The notes beneath the pieces are model-generated. The model was not told the origin of the DNA and made no database searches. It was given only the letters and a program-made list of their open reading frames with translations. From an uncultured Alphaproteobacteria bacterium (GTDB lineage: Bacteria; Pseudomonadota; Alphaproteobacteria; Rs-D84): a stretch of DNA of 64,000 nucleotides. The stretch is from the NCBI GenBank assembly GCA_949878575.1, contig CATLAX010000002.1, forward strand, positions 65,378 to 129,377, read 5' to 3'. The stretch's first letter is position 1; the number at the start of each line of letters is the position of its first letter. Below are positions 21,996 to 64,000 of the stretch, piece after piece. Both the position numbers and the translations under genes were made by a program.

Positions 21996-22088
21996 AAGGC
22001 CTCCTTGGGTGCGTTGCCAGAATTATATCACAAACACCTTTTATCACGCCAGTATTATAATAAAAAAGCCGCCATGCGGCGGCGGCAA

Positions 22089-22352: not shown

Positions 22353-22385
22353 TTTTATTCCCTCCCTTTGAAGTTCGCAAAACAC

Positions 22386-23627: not shown

Positions 23628-23690
23628 GGCTTGCTTTTTTTGTCCAGTTATAGAATTCTTTCACAAGAGGGAAAATCAAGGAATTTTATC

Positions 23691-24350: not shown

Positions 24351-24365
24351 GTATTTTTAATAAGA

Positions 24366-24393
24366 ACAAAAACCGCCCATAGGGCGGTTTTTG
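24366..24393. terminator. Bidirectional rho-independent terminator
   Basis: Hairpin aaaaccgccc-ata-gggcggtttt. Confidence 0.6.
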
Positions 24394-24448
24394 CACCACA
24401 TACAATAAATATGACCAGGTCAGAATTATTCCAGCGTTTAAGGCCTTA

Positions 24449-24937
24449 CTATTTTTCGCGTTCCGGACGACCAAATATGGCCTTATTACCCTTGTCACCC
24501 GATAACTGGCGCGAATATTCAGCAATTTCCTGCTGAATGGCGGTTCGTGTCAAAATCAGCTCATGTCGCTGTTCCGGATTCAACGTATCGGATTTCAGTT
24601 CCGCCTCCACCTGCGCCAAAACATTGCGCGCATATGTCAAATCTTGTTGCAGTTGTTTTTGATTCCGCCCATTATCCTTTATGCCTTTAACCTTAGCCGC
24701 ATAAGAATCTATTTCTTTTTGTATTTCCGACTTTGTTTGTATCAACTGGTGGCGCTCTTCGGGATTTAAGGTATCTGATTGCAATTCCGCCTCTACCTCT
24801 GCCAACGCATTACGCGCATATTCAATTTTTGCCGTCGCATCTTCATCGGATGATTTGTCAAGCGAATATTTTGCCCCCATCAGCCCCAATATCGCGATAC
24901 CAGACACCAACACTATTTTTTTTATCCGTTTCTTCAT
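24449..24937 (-). CDS. Membrane-anchored/secreted protein with two 50-aa internal repeats, hypothetical
   Basis: N-terminal TM/signal segment. The motif EYARNALAEVEAELQSDTLNPEERHQLIQTKSEIQKEI occurs twice. The repeat is also visible at the nucleotide level (about 24540-24640 vs 24730-24830). Confidence 0.5.
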   Translation of the reverse strand: MKKRIKKIVLVSGIAILGLMGAKYSLDKSSDEDATAKIEYARNALAEVEAELQSDTLNPEERHQLIQTKSEIQKEIDSYAAKVKGIKDNGRNQKQLQQDLTYARNVLAQVEAELKSDTLNPEQRHELILTRTAIQQEIAEYSRQLSGDKGNKAIFGRPEREK

Positions 24938-24938
24938 A

Positions 24939-25874
24939 TTATTTTCCTTTTATCTTTTGTACCAGCTTTTTATAAGAATCTATAAATTTGTTAACAAATA
25001 CAAACTTGGTTGCATCTGCATACTTCCAACGCCTATTAGAAATAATACTTCTTCCCGCCACATGAACACCATATAGATACCATTTATTGCCATAATTGAC
25101 AAATACAGGGTCACCAGAATCACCTCCCCACGTCTGACATCCGTGCATCATATCCCCCGCTGTTATCGTATCTACAACACATTTCGACATTTTTAAGCGG
25201 TTTGTATCACGGAAAGTATTTGCCGAAACACCCGGGACCAATCCTTCCCCTACCTGGTTAACAAATTGTCTCCCTTTACTTTTGCGGGCGTTAAAATCTT
25301 CGGCCTTTTTATTACTTTTAATAAATTTGGCATATTCACGTCTTAACGTGTTTATTTCCTGGTCGCTTAGTATCTTCAAGGCGCCATATCCGACAGCCTG
25401 GGCAAATGTACCCATGCCGGGCACCCCAAAAAAGATAGCCCTAATTTCACTTGATGTAAAGCTTTTCACACGAATATTTGAACGAACACTGCGTGATGGA
25501 ACCAACAAAGCCCAATCTGATTTTGCCCCACCTGTAGAATCATATTCCCCATCCGGATAAATATTTTTATCGGAAGCAGATGTTTTTGCTATTGTCATAT
25601 TACCATGGTTCGCAGAATTCAACCTAATCCTTCTTAGATTCCTTTTGCCGCTTTCGTCATAAATACAATGCTTTGCCGTTACAACAATACCATCAGCGGT
25701 CAATGTTCCCGTACAAAAATTCCGACCGTTTTGTTGCAGGCCTATTACCGCAGAATACGGTTCTGAGGAACGGCTTACATATTGACGCTTATCAATAGTG
25801 TACGTTGCAGCGCTGGCCGACCCGTACATACATACCGTGGCAACAGTTACCAAAAGCATGCAATATTTTTTCAT
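24939..25874 (-). CDS. Secreted trypsin-like (S1 family) serine protease
   Basis: Signal peptide. Catalytic His in VTAKHC, Asp in DWALLV, Ser in GDSGDPVF. Confidence 0.75.
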   Translation of the reverse strand: MKKYCMLLVTVATVCMYGSASAATYTIDKRQYVSRSSEPYSAVIGLQQNGRNFCTGTLTADGIVVTAKHCIYDESGKRNLRRIRLNSANHGNMTIAKTSASDKNIYPDGEYDSTGGAKSDWALLVPSRSVRSNIRVKSFTSSEIRAIFFGVPGMGTFAQAVGYGALKILSDQEINTLRREYAKFIKSNKKAEDFNARKSKGRQFVNQVGEGLVPGVSANTFRDTNRLKMSKCVVDTITAGDMMHGCQTWGGDSGDPVFVNYGNKWYLYGVHVAGRSIISNRRWKYADATKFVFVNKFIDSYKKLVQKIKGK

Positions 25875-25892
25875 TGAATACCCAGCGCCTCC

Positions 25893-26804
25893 TCACACTC
25901 TTCCGCCACAGCTGAAGCTTTTTTTTATAACGGATATTTGGGTTGCATTAAATATAGTCGCAGTTGCACTGGCCGCAGAGGTTCCGACAGCCAACACATT
26001 TGATGCCCGGTTCAGATTTTTTGCCTTTTCGCGACCCTGGTCTGTCGCATCCGTGCGAACATTATCTGTATTTGCAACCGCGCTGGTAACCGTGCCGGCC
26101 GCCCCCAGTGTCGCACCGACAATTGACGACCACATCGCCCCATCGGCCCGATTGTCAATCTTTGACAAATCAACCGTGTCATACTGACCACAGGCGGACA
26201 CAGCATTGTCCACATAACTTAAATCCGTCATATTGTCGTTCATATGTTCCTGCATTCGCTGTCTTTGTAACATACCAGTTGCAGCTATACAGTCATCAAC
26301 CGCCCCATGTAAATCATTTTTGGCCTTGTTATTACCAGCAATAACCGCACCTGCCACGTTTGTCGCAGTACTGCCCGCCATCAGCCCAGTGCGCCAATTA
26401 CCCAGATTTTTTGATTCTTTTTGCATTTCCAGCAGTTCTGCTATTTTGCTCATGGTTGGTAAAACATCTTCAAAGAAACTCTCGTCACTCATTGCCTCTA
26501 TTGCTTCGGCATCACAATACCCTTTGCCGCATAATTCTAGCGACAATTCCTCTATTTCTGCATCCAACGACTCTTTTGAAAAACCGACAACCGCCGCCCC
26601 GGCACCCGCCGCAGTTCCCACACCGGTCACAGCCGTATTTATTCCCGCCATTGTTTTCATGTGATTAAATTCAGCCGCAATACCACCACAACTTTGGCGA
26701 GCGTTAAAAATAGCCTGCTCTAGTTCTGGTGAATATGCATTAGCATGCGAAGTATAAAAAAACACCGCCACCACAATAAATATTATACGAAAATTATGAT
26801 ACAT
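25893..26804 (-). CDS. Secreted Ala/Gly/Thr-rich hypothetical protein
   Basis: 303 aa with signal peptide MYHNFRIIFIVVAVFFYTSHANA. Low-complexity A/G/T-rich regions. No recognisable domain. Confidence 0.4.
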   Translation of the reverse strand: MYHNFRIIFIVVAVFFYTSHANAYSPELEQAIFNARQSCGGIAAEFNHMKTMAGINTAVTGVGTAAGAGAAVVGFSKESLDAEIEELSLELCGKGYCDAEAIEAMSDESFFEDVLPTMSKIAELLEMQKESKNLGNWRTGLMAGSTATNVAGAVIAGNNKAKNDLHGAVDDCIAATGMLQRQRMQEHMNDNMTDLSYVDNAVSACGQYDTVDLSKIDNRADGAMWSSIVGATLGAAGTVTSAVANTDNVRTDATDQGREKAKNLNRASNVLAVGTSAASATATIFNATQISVIKKSFSCGGRV

Positions 26805-26876
26805 TATATATTAAATTGTATCACAATAAGCCTAATTGCTCAACTTTTTTTTGAACCGGATTATATTACTGCCATA

Positions 26877-26922
26877 ACAAAAAACCGTCCCAGTGGGACG
26901 GTTTGTAAATCTTGGACTGGCT
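26877..26922. repeat. Distal copy of 45-bp att-like direct repeat (terminator hairpin + partial tRNA-Asn 3' end)
   Basis: aaaaaaccgtcccagtgggacggtttgtaaatcttggactgg matches 27841-27884 with about 5 differences. Confidence 0.55.
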
Positions 26923-26958
26923 CAGCTTGCGATTATTGACCGAAATGTCCAGAAAAAT

Positions 26959-27687
26959 TTAACGACTTGATTTATTTTTTACATTTTCTATGAATGCTTG
27001 TTTTGCCAAGTTTTCAGTCAAACCAGATGCGCACACTGTGTTGTTGCTGTGTGCAGCCGCGACAAAAAAATGCTGTCGGTAAAATTGATTGCTTTTCATA
27101 TCCGGCAGCTGAACCCGAAACATATCTATACCTTTATCCCGCCACACATCATGAACAATCGCAACATAACTATAAGGTTCGTACGTCAAGACGTCTTGAA
27201 TATTTGAAAATTCTTCGTCTTCTGGATTAACCCAACAGTTACCTTTCAGCATCCAAAAACCAGCAAATTGCATAGAGGATTCGCCATATGGTTTATTGAA
27301 ATACTGAATTTTGTACCGTTTACCCAAATGATATAGGGTTTGTAAATTAATCAATCCTTGAAACTGGCTATGATTGAAAAAAGTCACATTATCGGGCATT
27401 GTTATTTTTCGCACCAACCATTTCATATAATATTGCGTTTTGTTACCATAGTTATATGGCAAATTATAACAATGCAACATCCGCTCAATATTATATTTTG
27501 TAATTTTGTTTACAGACTTATCAAGGATTAAATGCTCAAACTCTTCTGGATTATGACTGCCAAATATGTTGCCCAGGAAAATTTGCGCCTCCTCCGTTTC
27601 CCACGAATCTTTGGTTTTATTAATATCCTGTTCAATTTGTTGAACCAAAGGGTGGTTTATGATTTCACCAGATTTATTTTTGAACAC
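26959..27687 (-). CDS. Low-GC ORFan, hypothetical protein (cargo of tRNA-Asn islet)
   Basis: 242 aa in a strongly AT-rich gene. No recognisable motifs. Lies between the 45-bp direct repeats downstream of the tRNA-Asn 3' end. Confidence 0.45.
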   Translation of the reverse strand: MFKNKSGEIINHPLVQQIEQDINKTKDSWETEEAQIFLGNIFGSHNPEEFEHLILDKSVNKITKYNIERMLHCYNLPYNYGNKTQYYMKWLVRKITMPDNVTFFNHSQFQGLINLQTLYHLGKRYKIQYFNKPYGESSMQFAGFWMLKGNCWVNPEDEEFSNIQDVLTYEPYSYVAIVHDVWRDKGIDMFRVQLPDMKSNQFYRQHFFVAAAHSNNTVCASGLTENLAKQAFIENVKNKSSR

Positions 27688-27840
27688 GTTGGTATCCTTT
27701 TAGTAATTACGATCATACGACACAGACTATACCAAGCTCAATCGTTGTCAATATTTTTCGGCGATTATTCGATAATTATCAAAAAATCACGATTTTAATT
27801 CAGAAATTATCAAACCATGCGCGGGCATTGCAAAACCAAT

Positions 27841-27884
27841 AAAAAACCGCCCCGGTGGGGGCGGCTTGTAAATCTTGGCTCGGG
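27841..27884. repeat. Proximal copy of att-like direct repeat overlapping tRNA-Asn 3' end
   Basis: aaaaaaccgccccggtgggggcggcttgtaaatcttggctcgg. Confidence 0.55.
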
Positions 27885-27951
27885 ATGCTGGACTCGAACC
27901 AGCGACATACGGATTAACAGTCCGTTGTTCTACCGACTGAACTAATCCCGA
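27876..27951 (-). tRNA. tRNA-Asn (anticodon GTT)
   Basis: Hand-folded: U1:A72 acceptor (typical of bacterial tRNA-Asn), anticodon loop CUGUUAA, T-loop GGTTCGAGTCC, CCA encoded. Confidence 0.8.
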
Positions 27952-40337: not shown

Positions 40338-40413
40338 GGGGACATAGCTCAGTTGGTAGAGCAAATGACTTTTAATCATTGGGTCCAGGGTTCGAGTCCC
40401 TGTGTCCCCACCA
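40338..40413 (+). tRNA. tRNA-Lys (anticodon TTT)
   Basis: GGGGACATAGCTCAGTTGGTAGAGC... with anticodon loop CUUUUAA and GGTTCGAGTCC T-loop. CCA encoded. Confidence 0.9.
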
Positions 40414-40421
40414 GAATAAAA
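40398..40421 (+). repeat. attL core (direct repeat, overlaps tRNA-Lys 3' end)
   Basis: Exact 24-bp match to 47470-47493. Confidence 0.8.
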
Positions 40422-40548
40422 TTGTTAGAAATCCAACACTTTTGTTGGGTTTTTATTTTTTTGGTTTGAACCACACGAAACACACCAAAGCCTTAGAAAT
40501 CCAACATTTTCGTATTTTCACTTTTGCCAGAAACAAAGGGATACAGAT

Positions 40549-42114
40549 ATGGCAAAAACGTGTAATACAAGGTGTAATACAGACCACAATATATTATTGC
40601 GAAACAACATTTTTTATTATAGGGTTGAATTACCACGAGAAAACGGTAAAAGACGGTTCTTGTGCAAGTCTTTAAAGACATATAATTACTATGAAGCACG
40701 GGAAAAGGCTAAAATTATGGCTGAACAACTGCAAAATTTTGAAGTGCACGAATTCATTAAATCCATAGAATTATTGTGGAATCAGTTAAGTTTTGGCTAC
40801 GAATACCCAAATTTTGGTAAAAATATTTATGGTTTTATGCCGAATACCCCCATACGAACCATTTTGCCAGATTCTAGACCAGAAATTATCAATGGTCTGT
40901 TAGAAAAAGCAGATAAATTAAACCTGATTAAAAATAAGTCTTTGTCTGCACACGAAAAATCCGTTATAAAATTACTGAAAGAAAACAAAGAAAAACTGAT
41001 AGAATTGCAAGAAGATAATAATAAATTATTGGATAAAAATAACCGATTACTTGAAATGCTAATTTCTCATCAGGCCGCGAACACCGTGGCACAACAACCA
41101 AAAGTTGTTAAACATACGGTCGGGGAAATTTTGACATCTATGGTAAAGACGGCAAATAATGAAAAAGCCGAATCCGACCGAAAATATCCTGCAATAAAAA
41201 AACTTATTCAAGATGTCGGACTCGGGCTTGATTCTGATTATATGGATTTTTACAAACCGGAAATCATGCATAAAATTGGAGATTCTGTCCGTAATATGCC
41301 CAATGTAAAAAGTGGCACACAGCGAAAATACATCCAATATGTTATCCAGTTGATAAAGCACGCCCATATTTTGGAACCTGATACATATAAAGAAAATCTG
41401 ATACAAATATTACCAAAATTTGAAAAGACACCGAAATCTCAACAGAAACCGCACATGCCGTATACTGACGACCAGTTGTCGGAAATGTTTGACCCAAAAC
41501 ACGACTTTTTCAAAAAGAATCCCGACCAATTCTGGACAGCAATGATTGCATTGTTTACGGGTTCACGACAAAATGCCGCAATGACCCTGCAATATGGGGA
41601 CGTGCTTAAAAAAGATGGTTTGGATTGTATCCATTTTACTGAAAATCACTCCATTAAACACCTTAAAACAGAAGCCTCTGAACGTATTGTCCCGATAGCA
41701 CAACAATTCTTAAATTTGGGATTTGTAGAATATGTGCGGAACAGACAGGCAAAATTAAAGGCAGCAGATACAGATTTTATATTTCCGAAATGTCAAACCA
41801 GTGGTGGACAGGAAAATAATAAATTTGCAACCCGTGGAATATTAAAATTCTTGTCGGATATTGATATTAAAGATAAAAACGGGGATAAACAGGATTTTCA
41901 TTCTTTCCGTAAAAATGCCAGTTTAAGACTGCAAAAAGTGGGAGTTTTACCAACCTTTATCAATGACATTATTGGTTGGGAAGGCAAAAGCACAATGGAA
42001 CAATCCTATTCCAATCACAGATTACCCGAAATCAAGGAACAGGTGGATAAATTAAACTATGATTTCCTGCAACCGCATTTTGACAAGTGGAAAGAAATAA
42101 TGAAAGGGGTATAA
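40549..42114 (+). CDS. Tyrosine-type site-specific integrase (phage integrase family)
   Basis: C-terminal catalytic signature R...HSFRK...Y (HSFRKNASLRL; ...EQSYSNHRL). Located immediately 3' of the tRNA. The true start may be an internal Met (e.g. MAEQLQ). Confidence 0.8.
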   Translation: MAKTCNTRCNTDHNILLRNNIFYYRVELPRENGKRRFLCKSLKTYNYYEAREKAKIMAEQLQNFEVHEFIKSIELLWNQLSFGYEYPNFGKNIYGFMPNTPIRTILPDSRPEIINGLLEKADKLNLIKNKSLSAHEKSVIKLLKENKEKLIELQEDNNKLLDKNNRLLEMLISHQAANTVAQQPKVVKHTVGEILTSMVKTANNEKAESDRKYPAIKKLIQDVGLGLDSDYMDFYKPEIMHKIGDSVRNMPNVKSGTQRKYIQYVIQLIKHAHILEPDTYKENLIQILPKFEKTPKSQQKPHMPYTDDQLSEMFDPKHDFFKKNPDQFWTAMIALFTGSRQNAAMTLQYGDVLKKDGLDCIHFTENHSIKHLKTEASERIVPIAQQFLNLGFVEYVRNRQAKLKAADTDFIFPKCQTSGGQENNKFATRGILKFLSDIDIKDKNGDKQDFHSFRKNASLRLQKVGVLPTFINDIIGWEGKSTMEQSYSNHRLPEIKEQVDKLNYDFLQPHFDKWKEIMKGV

Positions 42115-42421
42115 CAATATCCCTTTTTTTTCGGTTTACATTTTATAATCCATTAAATATAATAGGTTTTGAATCAGTGGGGACACTGGTTCGGGGTCAT
42201 CTCAGGCCTAGTATGTTCGGTGCAAAACATAGAATACATCGTGATTCCGATTTCCTATGTTTTGACGTCGTTATTATCCCTGACTGTTATAGTCGGGGAG
42301 CTGTTGGTTATAAAACACGGTTTTTCCGAAAGACCAATGGGGTCAATAACATACTGATTTGAGAACTCCCCGACCGCTAGTGTTCTGCTAGTGGTCTAAT
42401 TTTTATACAAAGGGGAAAAAT

Positions 42422-42943
42422 ATGTTTCTTGTTTTGGCTTTGATATATTTCTTGCCAACAATAATCGCAATATGCAGAAAGTGCAATATTGGGCTTACGT
42501 TATTGGTAAACTTGTTCCTGGGGTGGACATGTATAGGTTGGATTGTTGCGTTGGTTCTGGCATTAAAAGGTACTGAATCCGTCCGAAATCAACCAACCAT
42601 TGTGATAAACAATACAAATGCCGATGGAAATGCAAAAATTCAACAAGACGTGAGAAATATAGCCCAAGACAAATACGCAGATAAAACAGAAAAAAGCATG
42701 CGTGGTGCAAGTCCATTAGCTGTTGGAATATGGTCTGCAATATTGGGAATATTTGGTTTAGCGTGGATTGGAACATTTGACCCAACAATGGGTTTTATCG
42801 CATTACTGGGGTTGGCTGGTTTGGGCTTTGAGGCTTGGGAATGGCTAAAAGTAAAATTTAACGATTCCATTGAACAAGCCGCACAAAAGAAGTCTCAAGA
42901 ACTCAAACAACAATTAAATAAAAAAGGAGCAAAAAATGACTGA
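42422..42943 (+). CDS. Superinfection-immunity (Imm)-like membrane protein
   Basis: The N-terminal YFLPTIIA...NLFLGWTCIGWIVALVLAL matches the Imm_superinfect family pattern. Additional C-terminal TM helices. Confidence 0.45.
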   Translation: MFLVLALIYFLPTIIAICRKCNIGLTLLVNLFLGWTCIGWIVALVLALKGTESVRNQPTIVINNTNADGNAKIQQDVRNIAQDKYADKTEKSMRGASPLAVGIWSAILGIFGLAWIGTFDPTMGFIALLGLAGLGFEAWEWLKVKFNDSIEQAAQKKSQELKQQLNKKGAKND

Positions 42944-43403
42944 AAACAAACCAACAAATATAGCCTTTAATAAAACAATTCTGTATTTTATGGCTATAGG
43001 CTGTATTCTTGTCGCACTGGTTTTATTTTTTAATAGAAACAATGCCGAGTTAAACATGGGAAGCAGTCTTATTTTTTATATAATTTGGGGTTGTATACTA
43101 TTATTTGGATTTGGTGGATTTAAACTGCTGTATAAAACATTTGGTGATAACCAACCTGCAATAGAATTCAATCCAAAAGGAATGATAATACACAGTTTGC
43201 AAAACGAAAAGTTGAACAAATATGTTTTATGGAAAGATGTTGCCGACATAGAAATGGGAGCAAATGGTAAAATCCGTATAAAATATAAAGATACCAACTT
43301 AGACGCAGAGGAAATAACATCGTATTTGTTCAATATCCCCAAACAGGAATTATTCAAAGTTTTATATTCGTATGCAAAACAGTATGGGGATATAAAAAAC
43401 TAA
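42936..43403 (+). CDS. Hypothetical 2-TM membrane protein (island cargo)
   Basis: 155 aa with two N-terminal TM helices and a cytoplasmic domain. Overlaps the preceding gene (ATGA coupling). RBS aaaaggagcaaaaaATG. Confidence 0.45.
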   Translation: MTENKPTNIAFNKTILYFMAIGCILVALVLFFNRNNAELNMGSSLIFYIIWGCILLFGFGGFKLLYKTFGDNQPAIEFNPKGMIIHSLQNEKLNKYVLWKDVADIEMGANGKIRIKYKDTNLDAEEITSYLFNIPKQELFKVLYSYAKQYGDIKN

Positions 43404-43429
43404 GCATATTATAAACAAAGGAGAAAAAT

Positions 43430-43858
43430 ATGTATACAAATAATGCAGCAAAATCAAATTCTGTAATAGGCTGGTTGGCAGCATTCGGATATATTATTGG
43501 TTATGTCCTGCTTTTATTTATAGGCCAAGCCGCTACTTGGATTAGTGTAATTTTATGTGTAGTAGACCGTCAAACCTTAAAAACATACGGTAAACATATT
43601 GCATTGGGTTGGTGTTTGTTACCACCTGTTTATATGTATAAACGTGCCAAAGTGTTGAATGATGGTTTTACAAAATTCTGGGTAAATTTAATAACCGCAA
43701 TCATATTCATTATATTAGCAGTTTATGCCGTGGTTCATACGACATCTTGTATGACGCAAGCATTGCCGTATTTTAATAATAATCACGAAATTGCAGCCCA
43801 GTTCTGTCAATGCACATTGGGTAATTCACCAGAAGAATGTTTGCGAAATTTGTTATAA
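43430..43858 (+). CDS. Hypothetical membrane protein (island cargo)
   Basis: 142 aa with three hydrophobic segments. RBS aaggagaaaaatATG. Confidence 0.45.
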   Translation: MYTNNAAKSNSVIGWLAAFGYIIGYVLLLFIGQAATWISVILCVVDRQTLKTYGKHIALGWCLLPPVYMYKRAKVLNDGFTKFWVNLITAIIFIILAVYAVVHTTSCMTQALPYFNNNHEIAAQFCQCTLGNSPEECLRNLL

Positions 43859-43949
43859 CCAATGTAAGGCAGATGTAAATCTGCCTTTTAAATACTCATT
43901 TTTACCTGGGCGACTGCCATTTGACGAATATATAATTGTATAAAACAAG

Positions 43950-44147
43950 GTGGCAAAAATGAAAATTGCATACGCTAAACAGTCTGGGAATATGGTAAGT
44001 CTTTATGACCCGAATAACCGTGAATATGTCCGTATATCTGGTGAACTGGTGTCTTATACATCTGAATTTGTAATAACCCGTGGCAGTGGGATAAATGGAC
44101 CAAAACACATTTATAATGCCTGTGGTCGGTGGGTTCGTGATATTTAA
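43950..44147 (+). CDS. Small hypothetical protein (island cargo)
   Basis: 65 aa. RBS aaggtggcaaaaATG. Confidence 0.35.
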   Translation: MAKMKIAYAKQSGNMVSLYDPNNREYVRISGELVSYTSEFVITRGSGINGPKHIYNACGRWVRDI

Positions 44148-44650
44148 TGCTGAAATGTCGGCAGGTTGAATAACGTCTCGGAAAATATCAATCTGTCCGT
44201 ATTAAAATGTCCTAGGTTATCCGCCGTGATTTCTTTTGTTATATACCCGTTTAATATATCTGGGGTTCGGTCTATTTCCTGCAAATCAAGAGTCCTGTCG
44301 GTCAATTTTAATTTTTCCGTTATATTATCCAGCGCAGTTTGAATTTCCGTGTCTGTGTATTTTGGAGCCCATAATAACAAATGCAGGTGCCAGACTTTAT
44401 TTGCCCCCAGTTCTGCCGTTCCGACAAAATGCACTGGGTTCCGATTCCAATGACGCCCGACAAGGGATTTTTCAAAATGCCGTATTATTTTATGAAATTT
44501 TGGCAGAGCCCTTTCAAAACTATCCGTATATGCCCCTATCGGTAGTCGGACGGTCAAGAAATGTGAAAATATTTGATTGTTTAACCAGTCTTGCAAGGAT
44601 TCCTGTATTTTCTGGGTTTGTGTCGGGCTGTAATAAGTTATGTTTTTCAT
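44144..44650 (-). CDS. Small rolling-circle replication initiator-like protein (HUH endonuclease motifs)
   Basis: The three ordered RCR motifs are present: FLTVRL (motif I-like), VWHLHLLLW (HUH, motif II) and NGYITKE (YxxK, motif III). Confidence 0.5.
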   Translation of the reverse strand: MKNITYYSPTQTQKIQESLQDWLNNQIFSHFLTVRLPIGAYTDSFERALPKFHKIIRHFEKSLVGRHWNRNPVHFVGTAELGANKVWHLHLLLWAPKYTDTEIQTALDNITEKLKLTDRTLDLQEIDRTPDILNGYITKEITADNLGHFNTDRLIFSETLFNLPTFQH

Positions 44651-45187
44651 TTATTGCTCTTTTTTATTTTAATGAGTCCAGATAAAGCAATTCCCAGTTG
44701 ATAAGGGATTTATATATCTTTATTTTCTCTGCATTCTGGATATAAATTTTTATGGTTAAAATTCATTTATATTTATGTAATCTGGTATAAAACGATACTT
44801 GGCGGAAATTTCGCCATAACGCGAGGTGCCGAAATTCCAGACAAAATCCGTCAATATGGCTATATATGAGCCCACACCAGAGGGATAATGTCGTTAAAAC
44901 ATACCCGAACCCTTACCAGATGGCCTGTCTAGTAAGGGTCGGATATTTTGCACATGCACAATACGAAAAGGCCTTTTTCGTCTGACCCGGGGGAGTATTT
45001 ATTATTTGAGTTCAGAAAGAACCACGATTTTCCCCGTTCTGTATCCCCGGGGCGACGTTTTACCGCTCCGAGGTATATATTAGAACTGTGTTCGTATAAT
45101 TATATTTTTGTGTAAAACTTTTTGTTTTATAAATATTTATAGGGGGAGTATAAATAAAATGGGAAACTGGGAAAGTGGGATTTTCGG

Positions 45188-45214
45188 GTAAAAAAAAGTG
45201 GGGAAATTCCCCAC
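45188..45214 (-). terminator. Rho-independent terminator after helicase gene
   Basis: Perfect palindrome gtggggaa-a-ttccccac followed by a T8 run on the minus strand. Confidence 0.5.
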
Positions 45215-45231
45215 CGTTTTTAATATGTAAT

Positions 45232-47070
45232 TTAATCCGTTGTCGGTAAAAACATTTCTGAAACAAATTTATATAGTCTCGGAGTTCCTTGATATGGCAC
45301 CTGCTTTTTTCGCGCAATATGTGTACCGTCTTTATCTGGCTCAATCCAACCCCATTCTACCAGTTTCTTTTTTGCCCGAGATGTGGGAAACCCTTTCAAA
45401 ATGGTGTTTTCCAAGACTTCTGGATAAACCCAGTAAATACATTTATTCCCAAGTTTACCTTCAAAATATCCGGCCATATCGTATACCTTATCGTCCGTAC
45501 CGCAGTATGTAATGTCCTTGAATTTGGAAAATCCATTACATTCAAAAAATAGCCGTACTTGCCGTTTTAAACGCTCCGTTTCCGTCAGTCGGTCAGGATT
45601 ATCTCGCCATTCATTAAACAGTTGTAAAGCAGCATCTTTTGCAACACCGAACTCCCAACCTGTTATTCCCCAATGGGTTGCCAATTCCCCCGCAAAACCA
45701 ACCAGTGCAAACCGCTTAAACGCCCGATTTTCGGCAGACTCCATATCGGTTGGTAATTTGGCTCGTAATGGCTCAAAGAATCTCTTAAAACTAGCCTGAA
45801 CTTCATCTTTGACAACAACCAAGGATTCCAAAAACTGTACTAATGGAACCCCATAAAATTTTCCAGTGCATTCATTAAGGTGTTCGGCAAATTTTCCCCC
45901 GTTTTCAAAACCGTGCAAATTGTCAAAAATACCGCTGATAGAATTTTGTGATACCGCAGGAATACTGATGAAACGAATTTCCTGCCCGTCCTTAATCGTC
46001 TTTCTAGATTCTGCAATATGGGTTTGAAAATCGATTTCGCCAGATGACAGAAATAAAGTAATCCATTTTTTTACGGCTCGTTTAGTCCACGTATGGTTAA
46101 AACGCCCTTTACCTTGCCCATTTGCAAGCATATACGCAACATTCCCCGTTATGGAACTAGGTAATTGTCCAACTTCGTCCAATACCAACAATGTATCGTT
46201 GTGAGATTCCGCCGTACTTTCTAGTGCATTATCTGTCGTCCGCCAAGAGTGCATATAATCCCTGTTTCCGCATACTGAGGTTGCCACTTTTAGCAAAGTC
46301 GTTTTTCCTGTGGAAGTCCGTCCATAAATATGAAAACCACCACCCTCTATATCACAAAGACGTAGCAAAGGTGCTGCAAAGGCACAACTTACCCCGAAAA
46401 TCAATCTGGAATTCCCAGTACAATACTGACCGATTTGGCTTTTCCATTCGTCCAAAGTTCCTTGGCAGATGTAACCGTTCGCATCGTCTGAATTGAAATA
46501 TAACTTGGCATTCTGCGTTCCTATAATTTTGGTTGGCAGAACGAAATTCTTTTCCGCCCACCCAGTGCGTTTGGTTTCCAAAATGATTTCCTGGGGTTTA
46601 AAATTGGTTATATATTCGCACAAACGGTTTTGTTCACATTTCAAGACGAAAAAGCCTTCCAGTAATAACTCCGATATAACCTCATTACCTCTAGCCAGGG
46701 AGTCCCTTGGTATATACTTTTGGCAGAGTTTGTCTTCAAAATTCTTAAATTCGACCAAAACACCCCACGATTTTGCGTCCTTGGTTTTGGTCAGTTTGGA
46801 CACATTGATATAATTTGAAACCCGACTATACACCACATTATTCGGTCCCTCGCTATCGGGGCTTTCAATTGACTCTACATGGAATAATCCATAATCCCGT
46901 AAGATAAAGCCGCCTGGAGTTCCTGGTAGCTGACGCAAACTTTCCTGTTCAAACTGTTCATAACTTACAGAAAATCTATTTAATTGCTTTAAAAACTCCT
47001 GTTCTTTATCGGACGTTCTGGGGTCATCTTGTGCTTGGTCTAATAAATCTTCAATTTTTGAATCGCTCAT
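45232..47070 (-). CDS. SF3 helicase/primase-associated ATPase (P4/D5-type replicative protein)
   Basis: Walker A GRTSTGKTT, Walker B LLVLDEVGQL, downstream motif C. 612 aa with an N-terminal domain of unknown type. Confidence 0.65.
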   Translation of the reverse strand: MSDSKIEDLLDQAQDDPRTSDKEQEFLKQLNRFSVSYEQFEQESLRQLPGTPGGFILRDYGLFHVESIESPDSEGPNNVVYSRVSNYINVSKLTKTKDAKSWGVLVEFKNFEDKLCQKYIPRDSLARGNEVISELLLEGFFVLKCEQNRLCEYITNFKPQEIILETKRTGWAEKNFVLPTKIIGTQNAKLYFNSDDANGYICQGTLDEWKSQIGQYCTGNSRLIFGVSCAFAAPLLRLCDIEGGGFHIYGRTSTGKTTLLKVATSVCGNRDYMHSWRTTDNALESTAESHNDTLLVLDEVGQLPSSITGNVAYMLANGQGKGRFNHTWTKRAVKKWITLFLSSGEIDFQTHIAESRKTIKDGQEIRFISIPAVSQNSISGIFDNLHGFENGGKFAEHLNECTGKFYGVPLVQFLESLVVVKDEVQASFKRFFEPLRAKLPTDMESAENRAFKRFALVGFAGELATHWGITGWEFGVAKDAALQLFNEWRDNPDRLTETERLKRQVRLFFECNGFSKFKDITYCGTDDKVYDMAGYFEGKLGNKCIYWVYPEVLENTILKGFPTSRAKKKLVEWGWIEPDKDGTHIARKKQVPYQGTPRLYKFVSEMFLPTTD

Positions 47071-47374
47071 TTTATCACCTATATAATTTTAAAAGTTTGC
47101 AAAAAACACGTCCATTTTTTTATAAATGGAAAGTATTTTGCGGTTTAATTTTCGGAAATAGGAGGCCACCCTAATGCCTTACGCAAACACTAACCCCGTT
47201 TTTTTGTGGTCGCAATAAATAAATTTCATTTTTACGAAGAAATTTTCAATTGTTTGAAAAATTCCCGAAATATCAAAGGGTTTATAATAATGCACTTAAC
47301 CGACTCAATGGAAAATAATTTATAAAAATACCCGTTTACATTGTCTGAAAATGGTATACAATAGAATTGCAAAA

Positions 47375-47396
47375 GTGTAATACAAGGTGTAATACA
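47375..47396 (+). repeat. Copy of 22-bp sequence gtgtaatacaaggtgtaataca (also at 40560-40581 at integrase 5' end)
   Basis: Exact 22-bp duplicate, itself an internal direct repeat of gtgtaataca. Confidence 0.6.
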
Positions 47397-47469
47397 TTTT
47401 AACAATTTTGATGGTAGGAATCTGGGAAAAGGTTAAAATCCTAGGGTTTTATAAACTTATGGTTTGTTC

Positions 47470-47493
47470 CCCTGTGTCCCCACCAGAATAAAA
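47470..47493 (+). repeat. attR core (direct repeat of tRNA-Lys 3' end)
   Basis: Exact 24-bp match to 40398-40421. Confidence 0.8.
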
Positions 47494-47536
47494 CACACCG
47501 CATTGCGGTGTTTTTATATGTACAAAGGAATACAAT

Positions 47537-59798: not shown

Positions 59799-62111
59799 TT
59801 AGCAGGCGTCCAGTTTCTGGCGCCAATGGGCCTTGCGCTGCTTAAACGATTTTATCCCGCCAAACGTTATTGTCTGCAAGATTTTATATTTTGCAATTTT
59901 ACGCTTTATTTTGCGTTTGGACATACCAGCACCGGAATTTGCATTCATTCGCCATTCAACCGTTCCATGCATAAGCTTATGCAACATAATTTCATAAAAC
60001 GGGGTTTTGCGTGCAAATTCCCAGAAATAATGCGCATTGTCACGCCACGGCTCGTTCCACGGCTTGATACTGCTGGCGTAATGCAGGATAAACGGATTTT
60101 TTAACAAATCCATTAAGGTTTCATATCCCAACGACCCCTTGGCCCAATACCAGTGAAAAGCCGCGTTCCATTCAACATTCCATTTGCCGTCTATGTAATG
60201 TATATGGCGGCCGTTCGCAACGGAATTCATAACATCCTGGTCTACATATAACGGATTACCCAACTCCCTTAAACGTACCAGGCATTTATCCATAACATTG
60301 TCTTTCCGGCATTGCTTTACATTCCAAATCATGACACCGGCCTGAAAATAATCACGCACATCGGTCATTTTTAAAGTATTTTTAATATAAGGCATCACAA
60401 AATTATTCGCCCAGGTATGTTTGACACATCCATCCGTCTCAAACCATTTTTCATGCGCCACACCCCACCAGTTGTCGCCAATATCAACATCAAACAATTC
60501 CGCTACATCATGCAGGGCCACCATATCCACATCCAAATACAGAACCTTGCCGTATTTTGCAAATATCTGCGGGATAAAGAATCTAAAGTAAGTATCCTGT
60601 GAAAAATGCTGGCCGGTGCATAGCATGGACATGTCTATGCCGGATATATAATCCTTGGCGTCAATCAAGCGCACGGAAATGTTCGGCGTCGCCATTGACA
60701 TTAGCAAGTGCTTGTTTTCATCGGAAACATCGCTGGATGATATGACAACGTCATAATTGCGGTTCTGACTGGCGTTGTCCTTTATTGACTGCAGCATCAC
60801 ACCACAATTCGGTGCATAATTATTGTTTGTCGCCATAAAAATCGTCACCGCATTGTCAAATACCGGCTGAATGCATGCGAACTGCGGTTTGGGTTTGCCG
60901 GACACCTTTTCAAAGTGCAGCCCGGACTTTAATTTTTTAGTCTTCTTGACAGTAATCAAATTAAACAGGCGCCATTTGACACAATCTGTTTTATAAACTT
61001 TGACCATTACCGGCATACCCATCAGACGCCATCCAGTCACCCCGGTCTTTTTATATATCGCCCAGAACAAATTGCCGTATTTTCCAGGTGTAACTTTCAG
61101 ATATTTCATAACAGTGAAATAATCCCCGGCGGCCAATGCCGACAGAACACCGTAAAAATATTCCGATTTGTACTTTTCCAGCGCATCAATACCGAATTTA
61201 TGCAGCAGTGTTCTGTATAAATCCAGCATTTCTATTTCCATATTCTCGTCATAGACATACGAAATTGAAAAGCCCAAGTATTCATACAAATCCTTGATAA
61301 AATTAATGCTGTTTATTTCATCCAACAAATTATTTTTCTGCAAAAAATCAAACTGGGCCGCCATTGAATGATAACAGTCAAATTCTTTGCCGGAATTTTT
61401 CTTGTTATATGTCAAATCCATTATACTGTTGCGGCGGACGACATAATTATATACAACCCTGTCCAAACCAAACATCGTCTTCATAACCGCATAACACTGC
61501 GACATAAAACATGTGTCATCATGCTCGTACCCGTCGGGGAAACGAATGTCATACCGGCGGATTATATCCATACGGAACAGACGCCCCCACAAAACAACAC
61601 CGCACATGTCGTGCCTGTTTTTCATTTTATCCAGCAAAAACGTACCGGTTATCTTTAATTTTTGCCATTCCACACAGGCAACCCTGTCCTTGTTTTTTGT
61701 ACCGTTTTCCCAAACCACGCGATTATCGGCAGACACCATGTCCGCATCGTTGGCCAGCATCGCCCCGAGCATCTGTTCAACGGCATCGTCGTCATACCAG
61801 TCGTCACTGTCACAGAACATCAGCCATTTTCCGCGGGCCGCGGCCAGGCCGGCATTTCGTGCCGTCGCCGGACCGGAATTTTTCTGTGATATAACCCGAA
61901 CGCGCCCGTCGCCCGCCGCCAGACGGTTTAATTCATCCAGACTGCCGTCGGTGGAACCGTCGTTTATACAAATAACCTCTATATCCCCATACGTTTGCGC
62001 AAGCAGGCTGCCGACACTGCGTTCCAAATATTTCTTGCAGTTATAAACCGGCATTATAACCGATACCAGACCGGCCGACTTTTTCTGTTGTTCCGTCATG
62101 CTAAAATCCAT
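59799..62111 (-). CDS. Bifunctional glycosyltransferase (N-terminal GT2 + C-terminal GT8 family domain)
   Basis: GT2: VSVIMPVYNCKKYLERSVGSLLAQTY...DSDD. GT8: YFRFFIPQIF...LYLDVDMVALHD (DxD) ...NWWGV. Confidence 0.75.
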   Translation of the reverse strand: MDFSMTEQQKKSAGLVSVIMPVYNCKKYLERSVGSLLAQTYGDIEVICINDGSTDGSLDELNRLAAGDGRVRVISQKNSGPATARNAGLAAARGKWLMFCDSDDWYDDDAVEQMLGAMLANDADMVSADNRVVWENGTKNKDRVACVEWQKLKITGTFLLDKMKNRHDMCGVVLWGRLFRMDIIRRYDIRFPDGYEHDDTCFMSQCYAVMKTMFGLDRVVYNYVVRRNSIMDLTYNKKNSGKEFDCYHSMAAQFDFLQKNNLLDEINSINFIKDLYEYLGFSISYVYDENMEIEMLDLYRTLLHKFGIDALEKYKSEYFYGVLSALAAGDYFTVMKYLKVTPGKYGNLFWAIYKKTGVTGWRLMGMPVMVKVYKTDCVKWRLFNLITVKKTKKLKSGLHFEKVSGKPKPQFACIQPVFDNAVTIFMATNNNYAPNCGVMLQSIKDNASQNRNYDVVISSSDVSDENKHLLMSMATPNISVRLIDAKDYISGIDMSMLCTGQHFSQDTYFRFFIPQIFAKYGKVLYLDVDMVALHDVAELFDVDIGDNWWGVAHEKWFETDGCVKHTWANNFVMPYIKNTLKMTDVRDYFQAGVMIWNVKQCRKDNVMDKCLVRLRELGNPLYVDQDVMNSVANGRHIHYIDGKWNVEWNAAFHWYWAKGSLGYETLMDLLKNPFILHYASSIKPWNEPWRDNAHYFWEFARKTPFYEIMLHKLMHGTVEWRMNANSGAGMSKRKIKRKIAKYKILQTITFGGIKSFKQRKAHWRQKLDAC

Positions 62112-63098: not shown

Positions 63099-64000
63099 TC
63101 AGCACCGGGCCAGTTCCTGCCGCCAGTTCGCCTTGCGCTTTTTAAATGATTTCACCATCCCCAGCGTTAAGGCCTGTAAAATCTTGTATTTCTTTATTTT
63201 ACGCTTAATGCGGCGAATTTTGGATTTATTCGGCTTGTTATAATACCCCGTTGCCGCAATTGACGCCATTGCCTTGGCCAGTATTTTTTCATAATACGGG
63301 GTTTGACGCGCATATTTCCAAAAATATTCCGCATAATCATTCTGGGGCTGATTCCACGGTCTGCTGTTGCCGCAATAATGCAGGATATACGCCCGCCCTG
63401 TCCACCAGACGGCCGTTTTATACGATTCCGTCACAGAATAATCGCCCCAGTCGTATTTCGGATTCCACGCCACGTTCCAATACGGCGAGAGCCAGAACAC
63501 GTGCTTGCCGTTCGCAACGGCATTCATTACGTCCTGGCTTAAAAACAATAACTGTTTGATTTCCTGCAGCTTGTCCAGGCATTTTGCCGTAACCTTATCC
63601 GCACGGCATCGCTTTATATTCCAAATCATCACGCCCGTTTGAAAATAATCATATACGGAATCCATTTTCAAAACGTTTTTAAGATGCGCCGCAACAGTGG
63701 TGGTGCCCCACGATTCGTACGGGGTTGAACATACTGTCGCAACACCCTTGTCATATGTTACGCCCCACCAGTTGTCGCCGATGTTCGTGTCATATAATTC
63801 GGCAATGTCGCGATTTGCGACCATGTCCGCATCCAGATACAAAACCTTGTCATAATTTGCAAAAATTTCGGGAATAAAATATCTGTAATACCTTTCTGCA
63901 CCAAATTTGGCGGATGCGTTGACAGCGTTCAAATCAGCATCGCCGACATAATTTTTTATATCAATAATACGCACGGAAACGTTCGGTGTCGCCATTGCCG
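63099..64000 (-). CDS. GT8-family glycosyltransferase, 5'-truncated by window edge (paralog of C-terminal half of 59799-62111)
   Basis: YYRYFIPEIFANYDKVLYLDADMVANRD...NWWGV with a C-terminal basic tail KRKIKKYKILQ. About 80% nucleotide identity to 59799-60720. Confidence 0.65.
   Translation of the reverse strand, partial: AMATPNVSVRIIDIKNYVGDADLNAVNASAKFGAERYYRYFIPEIFANYDKVLYLDADMVANRDIAELYDTNIGDNWWGVTYDKGVATVCSTPYESWGTTTVAAHLKNVLKMDSVYDYFQTGVMIWNIKRCRADKVTAKCLDKLQEIKQLLFLSQDVMNAVANGKHVFWLSPYWNVAWNPKYDWGDYSVTESYKTAVWWTGRAYILHYCGNSRPWNQPQNDYAEYFWKYARQTPYYEKILAKAMASIAATGYYNKPNKSKIRRIKRKIKKYKILQALTLGMVKSFKKRKANWRQELARC

Follow-up and report, generated by a model that had tools for sequence, protein, structure and literature searches.

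A 7.1-kb integrative island at tRNA-Lys of an uncultured gut alphaproteobacterium pairs an HUH nickase gene with a primase-less DUF927 helicase gene

The window analysed here, a stretch of 64,000 nucleotides from an uncultured alphaproteobacterium, carries an insertion of 7,072 bp (7.1 kb) at a tRNA-Lys gene, made by recombination across a 24-bp core that rebuilt the 3′ end of the tRNA. The backbone of the insertion consists of an integrase gene (int), a small conserved gene (orfX), a gene for an HUH endonuclease (rep), a conserved spacer and a gene for a DUF927 helicase that lacks a primase part. We think it probable that the insertion is a site-specific, self-replicating integrative island, and we include in this judgement the mechanism proposed below. 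The island belongs to a small family with a modular build, encountered in this analysis in uncultured gut Alphaproteobacteria.

Boundaries and recent mobility of the island

The integration target, tRNA-Lys(UUU), is intact after the insertion and occupies positions 40338-40413 of the forward strand (anticodon ttt; ARAGORN; Rfam RF00005, 77.5 bits). The preliminary description of this DNA had reported that a 24-bp sequence from the 3′ end of the tRNA recurs without mismatch 7.1 kb downstream, and this 24-mer, CCCTGTGTCCCCACCAGAATAAAA, was located exactly twice, at 40398-40421 and 47470-47493; 100 shuffles produced no match, and none is expected by chance. Since the tRNA ends at 40413 and the repeat starts at 40398, the 24-mer comprises the final 16 nt of the tRNA and 8 nt beyond it. 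The first copy is the attL core and the second, which repeats the 3′ end of the tRNA, is the attR core.

Comparison with three conspecific contigs (L094-L096), which match both flanks at 98.0-98.6% identity over ~21 kb, reveals an empty site. These contigs contain a single 24-mer at which the left and right flanks meet directly, their flank HSPs overlap by precisely the 24-bp core, and their tRNA-Lys(UUU) sequence is the same as that of the occupied window. The original host terminator of tRNA-Lys, located directly 3′ of the tRNA in the empty-site contigs, is now shifted 7 kb away to 47495-47518 (forward strand). The terminator scan also found a terminator-like hairpin with a T-run, supplied by the element on the forward strand just past the rebuilt tRNA (40426-40462). 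It is overlapped by a 21-nt TTAGAAATCCAACA repeat (40425-40445) that has a second copy at 40493-40513; these repeats are also kept in a sister element, L006.

The precise empty site in strains with 98% identical flanks thus establishes the boundaries of the island and its recent mobility. The preliminary description had proposed a search for such sites, and had held against mobility the case in which all relatives carry the same block in syntenic position without att repeats; the conspecific strains have the empty site instead. The occupied contigs, 99.99-100% identical among themselves, record a single integration in a single lineage rather than several moves of the window's copy, and neither an excised circle nor an attP junction was found in the sequences searched. 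GC content is 0.35-0.40 within the element versus ~0.48-0.49 in the flanks (2-kb windows), and non-coding stretches are present at 42115-42421, 44651-45231 and 47071-47469.

Backbone genes and exchangeable cargo

The gene layout is largely as first described, with a tyrosine integrase adjoining attL, rep and the helicase gene on the opposite strand, and no match to structural or lysis families in Pfam, PHROGs and NCBIfam. No backbone ORF is truncated, and the catalytic residues are intact. The integrase (521 aa; 40549-42114, forward strand; PF00589, Phage_integrase, 1.9e-10; phrog_1, 1.8e-20) combines an N-terminal DUF6538/AP2-like domain with a C-terminal catalytic domain, in which R340, H451, R454, W477 and Y487 are invariant in six family integrases. 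An arm-type repeat, GTGTAATACA x2, is situated within the first int codons (40556-40581, forward strand; repeat scan) and matches 47371-47396 at 96% identity. This second arm-type repeat belongs to a non-coding control region 5′ of the helicase gene (47071-47469), which contains no ORF with a family match and which an excised circle would bring next to the upstream region of int. A 22-mer of the repeat is found at both ends of L006 too, and the GTGTAATACA arms are putative binding sites of Int.

Between int and orfX/rep lies a swappable cargo slot, the contents of which differ from element to element. In the window, the slot encodes three membrane proteins with 2-4 TM-like segments each, all on the forward strand. 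The first (42422-42943) has a superinfection-immunity (Imm) domain (PF14373, Imm_superinfect, 45.1 bits against a cut-off of 27.9; phrog_1039, 4.5e-16), the second (42936-43403) belongs to the STM3941 family (NF041635, 44.8 bits against a cut-off of 40; two TM-like segments), and the third (43430-43858; 142 aa, three TM-like segments) has a weak match to phrog_12486 and is missing from the sister elements, the cargo of which is different. None of the window's cargo has a PADLOC match; these membrane proteins probably block phages. In relatives, the slot contains genes for methyltransferases, candidate defence genes or PAP2. The cargo of L016 matches PDC-S57, UzuA-like and AAA_15/21 ATPase entries (PADLOC), and that of L181 comprises two N6_N4 methyltransferases and a 412-aa ORF. 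We also note a 62-aa TM-like ORF at 42169-42357, which was left uncalled by gene callers.

Of the four small membrane ORFs counted originally, these three cargo genes stand, and the fourth (43950-44147, forward strand) is orfX, a backbone gene for a conserved basic protein of 62-65 aa (family alignment; pI 9.5) without a TM segment. It is convergent with rep, overlaps the rep stop codon and follows rep in 11/11 family loci that have a complete rep and its 3′ flank. Identity within the family is 56-98%. OrfX has no match in Pfam, PHROG or PADLOC and is a candidate excision factor or DNA-binding protein.

Rep (168 aa; 44144-44650, reverse strand) is a stand-alone HUH endonuclease of the Rep-type nickase class, as indicated by invariant E, H-x-H and Y-x-x-K residues, with H-W-N replacing H-x-H in one subfamily, and by a structure model. 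The model is confident, and its structural neighbours are viral and plasmid Rep nuclease domains, the best matches being SIRV1 ORF119 and the AAV5 Rep nuclease domain, while sequence similarity to the matched viral Reps is marginal (E 0.03-0.4). In profile HMM searches, which also matched the integrase and the helicase to their families, Rep scores 27.7 for PF23343, just under the curated cut-off of 27.8. The alignment places the catalytic tyrosine downstream of the HUH motif; this order is that of the Rep class in the HUH superfamily, unlike relaxases. The family is rare, with 160 cluster representatives among 1.84 billion proteins and relatives at only 2 loci in JGI metagenomes. No relative was found in INPHARED phages, PLSDB (72,556 plasmids) or IMG/VR, and our literature search found no paper that couples DUF927 with an HUH Rep, which makes the earlier suggestion of an uncatalogued family plausible.

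The DUF927 (SF3-type) replicative helicase (612 aa; 45232-47070, reverse strand; PF06048, 9.3e-72) aligns to positions 379-875 of phrog_1139, a profile with 895 positions, and hence lacks the primase part. The Walker A GKTT and Walker B DE motifs are invariant. Its PDB matches are 8tch ("Pathogenicity island protein", 4.9e-14) and 5dgk ("Active helicase" to its depositors, 8.3e-14), the latter of which we take to be SCCmec Cch; for NCBIfam Cch1, where the cut-off is 700, the island helicase scores 63. The primase domain is missing from the 11 nearest full-length relatives (585-608 aa) too, and many of the more distant relatives are fused to Toprim domains. No other primase-like ORF was detected in the element by Pfam, PHROGs, NCBIfam and an ORF check. 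Helicase relatives occur on small plasmids, including a 6.4-kb Nitrosoglobus and a 14.6-kb Legionella plasmid, and close relatives are absent from IMG/VR and phage records.

The conserved 0.5-kb spacer between the helicase gene and rep contains iteron-like repeats, an AT-rich stretch and hairpins. Directly 3′ of the helicase ORF, the family alignment reveals (A/T)TCCCA repeats (45140-45196) and, beyond them, an AT-rich stretch of 55 nt (45085-45139; together 45085-45196, reverse strand); 7/7 family members examined have two to four TYCCC repeats at the position of the (A/T)TCCCA repeats. By analogy with SaPI Rep helicases, where iterons and an AT-rich stretch come right after the helicase ORF (PMC9371898), we propose that this is the site at which the helicase loads. 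The structured core that follows (44780-45084, reverse strand) has a GTTCTA(T)ATA motif, GC-rich hairpins at 45019-45039 and 44901-44946, and further hairpins. It has no Rfam family, and the DNA fold gives z = -2.4 and -2.3 for the two strands. Compensatory changes preserve helix 4 (5/8 pairs) and helix 6 of a consensus structure that was derived from the very alignment on which it was tested. This core may hold the Rep nick site and a single-strand origin. The case for the nick site, for iteron binding and for the second-strand origin comes from their position and from conservation across only 2-3 independent lineages.

Sister elements of 6-10.5 kb are present in other hosts, two of which are gut alphaproteobacterial MAGs. 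The same gene order is observed at tRNA-Gln (L006, 6.07 kb) and at tRNA-Pro (L009, L015 and L016; 7.3, 8.3 and 10.5 kb), with tRNA-derived repeats of 16-21 bp; L013 (6.9 kb) has matching 17-bp repeats on a contig without a tRNA gene. The order helicase-spacer-rep is kept in 10/10 family loci that contain the helicase. L181 is 97-98% identical to the window in the 3′ part of int, in the core of orfX, rep and spacer (a 97% block at 43892-45054 that covers most of the structured core) and in the attR arm (98% at 47325-47470), but its helicase shares only 52% protein identity and its cargo is different. The family identity table has the same modular pattern, and among 80 genome loci with helicase relatives, Rep co-occurs only in the three closest, L014-L016. 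Rep and the spacer are exchanged apart from the helicase. The "split replication module" of the preliminary description was right in that an HUH Rep and an SF3-type helicase are both present; they are not halves of one protein, and the wording misleads because their genes have different histories.

Proposed life cycle and alternative readings

In the mechanism that we propose, Int would bind the GTGTAATACA arms at the two ends and, perhaps with help from OrfX, excise a circle. The helicase would load itself at the TCCCA iterons and the AT-rich stretch 3′ of its own gene, like SaPI Rep, and, as no primase is encoded, the small HUH protein would nick the adjacent conserved hairpin region. The free 3′-OH at the nick would prime the host polymerase, rolling-circle copying would yield concatemers or single strands, and the structured spacer would serve as the origin for the second strand. 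Copies would exit by hitch-hiking, most likely in the capsids of a putative helper phage, like 6-kb PICMI satellites, while the integrated element would pay its way through phage-blocking cargo, here the Imm-type membrane protein. Induction and transfer are purely inferred, since family searches of the element recognised neither a regulator (AlpA, Stl or cI type) nor an excisionase, nor any gene for packaging, capsid hijacking or a relaxase.

It is possible, if hardly probable, that the element is a bona fide tailed-phage satellite in the sense of P4, PICI or PICMI, excised and replicated upon helper infection or prophage induction and packaged in helper capsids. Its size, tRNA site, int-cargo-replication layout and lack of structural genes fit, as does the kinship of its helicase with SaPI Rep. 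DUF927 proteins count among satellite "primases" (PMC10111431), anti-phage-type cargo in a variable slot is a trait that SatelliteFinder reports for known satellites (PMC10085698), and six genes can be enough, as PICMI demonstrates. Nevertheless, AlpA, Stl and MerR-type regulators and Psu, Sid, Delta, TerS, capsid and HNH genes are absent, and IMG/VR and phage records hold neither a Rep relative nor a close helicase relative.

Small elements built of an integrase and a nickase are common, and the island could instead be an integrative mobilizable element or an integrated rolling-circle plasmid, in which the HUH protein would serve as the relaxase at an oriT and transfer would depend on a conjugative system resident in the same cell. 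HUH nickases do drive conjugative transfer as well as rolling-circle replication (PMC5862659), and the occurrence of helicase relatives on the small plasmids of Nitrosoglobus and Legionella agrees with this. We judge it unlikely: the tyrosine follows the HUH motif in Rep order, no relaxase, MobC or coupling-protein family is matched in Pfam and NCBIfam, the 72,556 plasmids contain no Rep relative, and 62/68 plasmids with helicase relatives are typed non-mobilizable.

Derivation from an ssDNA phage, or service as its satellite (cf. RS1/TLC for CTX phi) with single-stranded circles made by the HUH Rep and packaged by a filamentous or microvirus-like helper, is suggested by PF23343, a Pfam family named for ORF2/G2P replication proteins, by microvirus replication initiators among the structural neighbours of Rep, by the small membrane ORFs, and by a length of 7 kb, within the range of filamentous-phage genomes. 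This origin is quite improbable, given that no Zot/pI-type assembly ATPase or coat-protein family is matched in Pfam and PHROGs, that the membrane ORFs are cargo varying between relatives rather than backbone, and that RS1 and TLC are not known to have a large SF3-type helicase or a tyrosine integrase directed at tRNA genes. An immobile relic of an old insertion or prophage, with excision and replication lost, would account for the near-clonal occupied contigs, the missing excised form in the sequences searched and the want of a recognisable excisionase or regulator, but is very improbable in view of the full-length backbone ORFs with intact catalytic residues, the identical att cores, the precise empty site in conspecific strains, the recent exchange evident in the 97%-identical variant with swapped modules (L181) and the relatives at other tRNAs in other hosts.

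Comparison with known systems

The self-replicating island that we favour has the compact int, cargo and helicase-rep layout for which the preliminary description likened it to P4-like satellites and PICIs; membership in these groups does not follow. The P4-like genes Psu, Delta, Sid, AlpA, epsilon and primase-helicase alpha, the PICI regulator, packaging and capsid-redirection genes, and the PICMI AlpA, DUF3987/DUF5906 primase and fis site were not found in the element, so "satellite" describes a hypothetical lifestyle only. P4-like satellites as defined by SatelliteFinder resemble the island in their integrase at a tRNA, their helicase-based replication protein and their size of about 10 kb, which includes a defence hot spot, but they are 93% Enterobacteriaceae (PMC10085698), and the island helicase lacks the primase part of alpha. 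PICMI of Vibrionaceae resembles the island in its length of about 6-7 kb, its half a dozen genes and its lack of capsid-remodelling genes; it is a 6-kb satellite with rolling-circle replication, the concatemers of which are packaged, and it protects its host from other phages (PMC10803314). By definition, however, PICMI combines int, alpA and the DUF3987/DUF5906 primase gene beside fis, in contrast to the tRNA site of the island.

Cargo-carrying tycheposons (bioRxiv 10.1101/2020.12.28.424599) likewise span a few kb between partial tRNA repeats, with an inward tRNA-targeting tyrosine integrase at one end, a small replication module at the other and variable adaptation or phage-interference cargo between. 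They reside in Prochlorococcus and other marine bacteria rather than in a gut alphaproteobacterium, and the replication genes reported for them are those of polymerases, primases and helicases, where the island has an HUH nickase and a primase-less DUF927 helicase.

The ATPase core of the island helicase is homologous to those of SaPI/PICI Rep and SCCmec Cch (E about 1e-14), and SaPI Rep shares with it the iterons and AT-rich stretch directly downstream of the ORF (PMC9371898), but SaPI Rep and the SCCmec helicase are each partnered by a primase and the island helicase by an HUH nickase. HUH nickase and SF3-type helicase activities also serve one replicon in the Reps of parvoviruses and CRESS-DNA viruses; in the island, they belong to two genes with separate histories in a bacterial integrative dsDNA element, the small Rep of which has the stand-alone SIRV1 ORF119 among its best structural matches.

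Insertion at tRNA-Lys and its empty site

The preliminary description had delimited an integrative element by an exact 24-bp direct repeat, and its second copy is indeed present: the window contains two exact copies of CCCTGTGTCCCCACCAGAATAAAA and no more, 40398-40421 and 47470-47493 (0 in 100 shuffles), which bound a unit of 7,072 bp. An intact tRNA-Lys(UUU) gene was located at 40338-40413 by ARAGORN and Rfam, so the repeat consists of the tRNA 3' terminus (16 nt, CCA included) and the 8 nt that follow. The GC content, measured in 2-kb windows, is 0.35-0.40 between the two copies and ~0.48-0.49 outside.

Three contigs (L094-L096), reached through a right-flank metallophosphatase variant of >90% identity, provide a precise empty site in conspecific strains. 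In these contigs, tRNA-Lys lies directly between the left-flank gene and the 132-aa gene of the right flank. They share 98.0-98.6% identity with the window over ~21 kb in two alignment blocks, whose overlap is the 24-bp core and nothing more. The order is left flank, tRNA, core, and right flank, with a host terminator hairpin situated directly 3' of the tRNA. The empty site rules out an ancestral block fixed in the species. The element is thus inserted site-specifically at the tRNA end and is polymorphic for presence and absence. The island is present in 24 of the 24 longest contigs encoding an identical helicase; the 24 longest encoding an identical flank protein all either contain it or break inside it. 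Runs carrying the island include ERR3199635, ERR3199638, and those behind GCA_948930925.1 and GCA_948961985.1. Identity to the window is 99.99-100% among the occupied contigs, which speaks for a single integration event in one lineage. In a scan of one genome per species, no helicase exceeded 44% identity; either the species lies outside that collection or its representative genome is without the island.

The junctions predicted for excision are …GGTTTGTTC-core-TTGTTAGAAATCC… for attP and …GGTTCGAGT-core-CACACCGCATTGC… for attB. The attP junction 41-mer was not found in IMG/VR or in any fetched locus, and terminal overlaps marking circular contigs were absent among the short family contigs. 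We also note two independent metagenome contigs that end within the island near module boundaries, L005 at the helicase 3' end (window 45449) and L180 at the int/cargo junction (window 42141), as expected if related module-sharing elements co-occur in those samples.

The integrase (40549-42114, + strand) matches PF00589 with 41.2 bits against a cut-off of 27.1 and also phrog_1, and the tyrosine recombinase catalytic residues R340, H451, R454, W477, and Y487 are invariant among six family integrases. One copy of a 26-nt repeat composed of two GTGTAATACA units (40556-40581) falls within the first int codons, and another lies at 47371-47396; we read these copies as putative arm-type sites. The repeats within the first int codons (40549-40590) encode the peptide MAKTCNTRCNTD, and the integrase N-terminus of the sister element L006 is identical. 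Binding of Int at repeats in its own first codons could regulate its own expression. The att cores of the window and of the sister elements L006, L009, and L015 represent three subfamilies located at different tRNAs (Lys, Gln, and Pro). All these cores share TGGTNGGGG (complementary strand), which corresponds to the CCA end and the G-rich acceptor stem; this suggests small shifts in integrase specificity among the three subfamilies.

Two further features of the window lie outside the island. A second low-GC stretch (0.41-0.43) at 22000-27950 adjoins tRNA-Asn(gtt) at 27876-27951 and encodes an HTH-repeat protein, an outer-membrane beta-barrel protein, and a trypsin-like protein; neither an integrase nor a convincing flanking repeat was found there, and it may be an older island. 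A 42-nt direct repeat with 81% identity occurs at 60210-60251 and 63507-63548, 3.3 kb apart.

The Rep nickase, the helicase, and the spacer between them

Rep (44144-44650, - strand) is a stand-alone protein of 168 aa. The Rep of the element scores 27.7 against PF23343, just below the cut-off of 27.8, and 56 of 62 Rep sequences match this family. H88, H90, and Y136 are invariant among the 62 sequences, and K139 and E80 are nearly so. The catalytic tyrosine (YxxK) lies downstream of the HUH motif, and this is the Rep-class order rather than that of relaxases. A first AlphaFold model from 7 sequences (pLDDT 59.7) was replaced by one from the 62-sequence alignment (pLDDT 92.5), in which the beta-sheet fold of HUH nucleases is predicted; its viral-model matches include microvirus replication initiators, phage “Replication gene A protein”, and ORF2/G2P proteins. 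The family is rare, with only 160 cluster representatives in 1.84 billion proteins in an exhaustive profile search. Rep had no tblastn match in phages or plasmids, the entire element had no blastn match among phage records, no Rep loci were found in IMG/VR, and Pfam identified no added domains in N-terminally extended Rep homologues. The Reps of the tRNA-Pro subfamily (L009 8658-9119, L013 2755-3231, and L015 12202-12678) carry H-W-N where the others carry H-L-H, with an asparagine in place of the second metal-binding histidine; the catalytic tyrosine and lysine are kept.

The 612-aa protein encoded at 45232-47070 (- strand) is a DUF927 helicase (PF06048, E 9.3e-72) with invariant Walker A (GKTT) and Walker B (DE) motifs. 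Its PDB matches, both at ~1e-14, are 8tch, a SaPI “pathogenicity island protein”, and 5dgk, deposited as “Active helicase”, which we take to be SCCmec Cch. Its alignment to the phage “DNA primase” profile phrog_1139 is confined to positions 379-875, indicating that the primase part is missing, and Pfam detects no Toprim domain. Many more distant relatives are 800-950 aa long and fused to Toprim domains, and Rep co-occurs only in the three closest of 80 genome loci with helicase relatives. Loci L017-L029, L032, and L063, from gut or rumen alphaproteobacterial and Holosporaceae MAGs, contain longer DUF927 frames (~860 aa, 35-37% identical) with Rep absent nearby. In the protein search, Toprim domains are present in relatives of such length, and these loci look like a sister island type with a primase in place of the nickase. 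In the literature searched, DUF927 is described as a helicase partnered with primases (PMC5862659), and its pairing with an HUH protein was not found.

The spacer between the two genes (44651-45231) is the putative origin. Read on the helicase strand, it consists of a terminator hairpin, two to four (A/T)TCCCA repeats, a 55-nt AT-rich stretch, a conserved GTTCTA(T)ATA motif with GC-rich hairpins, and finally ~300 nt with further hairpins. The TCCCA repeats (45140-45196 in the window) and the AT-rich stretch are in the expected place in all members; in the window, inverted GGGGA copies follow on the far side of the AT-rich stretch. In SaPI origins, iterons flank an AT-rich stretch on both sides directly after the helicase ORF (PMC9371898), and a C-terminal winged helix of the helicase binds them; the spacer, with its putative iterons, appears to have a similar layout directly 3' of its helicase ORF. 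Compensatory changes between subfamilies keep two hairpins, helix 4 (5/8 pairs) and helix 6, and the spacer core folds better than shuffles on both strands (z ~ -2.3). These observations hint weakly at conservation of structure by compensatory change, because they come from 2-3 independent lineages and the structure was derived from the same alignment that was used for the test. Rfam returned no family for the spacer, the matches being sub-threshold and due to chance. A candidate region for the Rep nick site is 44780-45084.

Sister elements, cargo, and module exchange

The nearest helicase relatives (40-52% identity) are situated in elements of the same order, namely helicase, ~0.5-kb spacer, Rep, a convergent ORF of 62-65 aa (orfX; 43950-44147, + strand, in the window), variable genes, integrase, and tRNA. 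Helicase, spacer, and rep follow in this order in 10/10 family loci containing the helicase, and orfX follows rep in all 11 loci in which a complete rep and its 3' flank are present. Direct repeats derived from the tRNA bound the sister elements: 21 bp at tRNA-Gln in L006 (6.07 kb), and at tRNA-Pro 16 bp in L009 (7.3 kb), 18 bp in L015 (8.3 kb), and 17 bp in L016 (10.5 kb). The 17-bp repeats of L013 (6.9 kb), on a contig without a tRNA gene, match the tRNA-Pro core. L016 has a partial third copy of the tRNA-Pro core ~200 bp outside the distal repeat (copies at 7045-7059, 7241-7257, and 17779-17795), which may be the scar of an earlier or tandem insertion. L014-L016 come from goat and horse gut alphaproteobacterial MAGs, and BamA of the window host is 78-80% identical to proteins named “MAG: Alphaproteobacteria bacterium”. 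The tRNA-Gln gene of the window was considered as the empty site of L006 and dropped; the match is limited to the tRNA gene, which places L006 in another organism.

The cargo occupies the slot between int and orfX. Three cargo ORFs of the window (42422-43858) encode membrane proteins, one with a superinfection-immunity domain (PF14373, phrog_1039), one of the STM3941 family, and one of unknown type; PADLOC found no match in the window cargo. L006 carries PAP2 instead, L016 carries PDC-S57, a UzuA-like protein, and an AAA_15/21 ATPase, all with PADLOC matches, and the module-swapped variant L181 carries two N6_N4 methyltransferases and a 412-aa ORF. Given these differences, the slot behaves as a hot spot, often with defence-type genes.

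Conservation is far stronger in Rep and the spacer than in the helicase; within the tRNA-Pro group, the former two share 90-98% nucleotide identity versus 44-71% protein identity for the helicase. Comparison of L181 (1-7479) with the window (41202-47470) reveals 97-98% identity in the 3' part of int (41202-42127), in the core formed by orfX, rep, and spacer (43892-45054), and in the attR arm (47325-47470). The helicase block (45055-47324) aligns in short stretches only, at 70-74% nucleotide identity, and the two helicase proteins are 52% identical. The recombination breakpoints are sharp, at ~42127, 43892, 45054, and 47325. The element has an intact integrase, HUH nickase, and helicase in a conserved backbone with swappable modules.

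Proposed life cycle and relation to known elements

We propose a cycle in which Int would excise a circle and the helicase would load itself at its own iterons. Without a primase, Rep would nick the neighbouring conserved region and start rolling-circle synthesis, and the structured spacer might prime the second strand; as a guess, the products could leave the cell by hitch-hiking. T4 Imm blocks phage entry, and by analogy Imm-type cargo would benefit the host in the same way. The most far-reaching interpretation, which we hold to be improbable, is that of a new family of bacterial satellites in which the primase is replaced by a stand-alone HUH nickase acting in trans with a self-loading helicase of the SF3 type. 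The pair would then be the bacterial equivalent, split over two genes, of the HUH+SF3 Rep found in parvoviruses and CRESS-DNA viruses. Rolling-circle products packaged by a helper, and possibly single-stranded, would carry such satellites from one gut alphaproteobacterium to another, and the satellites would serve as swappable carriers of anti-phage genes.

Small islands of integrase and replication genes are now thought to account for a large part of bacterial mobile DNA, one that is mostly uncharted, and to be a main vehicle of anti-phage genes. To our knowledge, no satellite-like elements have been catalogued in uncultured gut Alphaproteobacteria, to which the present family extends this picture; not previously reported for such islands is the nickase in place of a primase beside a DUF927 helicase. 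If Rep and the helicase cooperate, they offer a simple system for the coupling of an SF3-type helicase to rolling-circle initiation outside eukaryotic viruses. The sharp boundaries of the modules (int/att, cargo, rep plus origin, and helicase) constitute a natural experiment on element recombination, and Rep and orfX profiles are specific markers for further members, which current satellite finders probably miss.

Among known kinds, the element corresponds in layout to cargo-carrying tycheposons as published (bioRxiv 10.1101/2020.12.28.424599), with an inward tRNA-specific integrase at one end, a replication module at the other, and cargo between. In outline, the element would work like the P4-like satellites or PICIs with which the preliminary description compared it, and like PICMI; the gene-content definitions of all three kinds do not hold. 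Like P4-like satellites (SatelliteFinder, PMC10085698), the element has an integrase, but the capsid-hijack genes Psu, Delta, and Sid are absent from all its ORFs (Pfam, PHROGs, NCBIfam), as are an AlpA-type regulator and epsilon (Ash), with no HTH, AlpA, or MerR match at E up to 1, and its helicase is without the primase part of the alpha primase-helicase. Pfam likewise found no AlpA or Xis in small ORFs of the non-coding stretches at E up to 1. The regulator and the packaging or capsid-redirection genes of PICI/SaPI (terS, cpm, ppi, and others) gave no match in Pfam, PHROGs, or NCBIfam. PICMI, a 6-kb, six-gene island without capsid genes, shows that the proposed way of life is feasible (PMC10803314); of its int, alpA, and DUF3987/DUF5906 primase next to fis, the element has only int, and its site is tRNA-Lys. 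An integrative mobilizable element would carry MOB or T4CP families, for which Pfam and NCBIfam gave no match, and the order of HUH motif and tyrosine is of the Rep type, not the relaxase type. An inovirus or relative was rejected because Pfam and PHROGs show no Zot/pI assembly ATPase and because the membrane ORFs are variable cargo, not conserved among relatives; these searches gave no conserved coat proteins either. The earlier statement that structural and lysis genes are lacking holds for all element ORFs, small ones included, in which Pfam, PHROGs, and NCBIfam identify no structural, lysis, packaging, regulator, or relaxase family, and this, together with the conserved intact backbone, rules out a complete or defective prophage. 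Because its layout is tycheposon-like and the P4-like, PICI, PICMI, inovirus, and mobilizable definitions do not apply, we file the element as a small tRNA-integrating, self-replicating island or hitcher, whose distinguishing feature is an HUH nickase paired with a primase-less DUF927 helicase.
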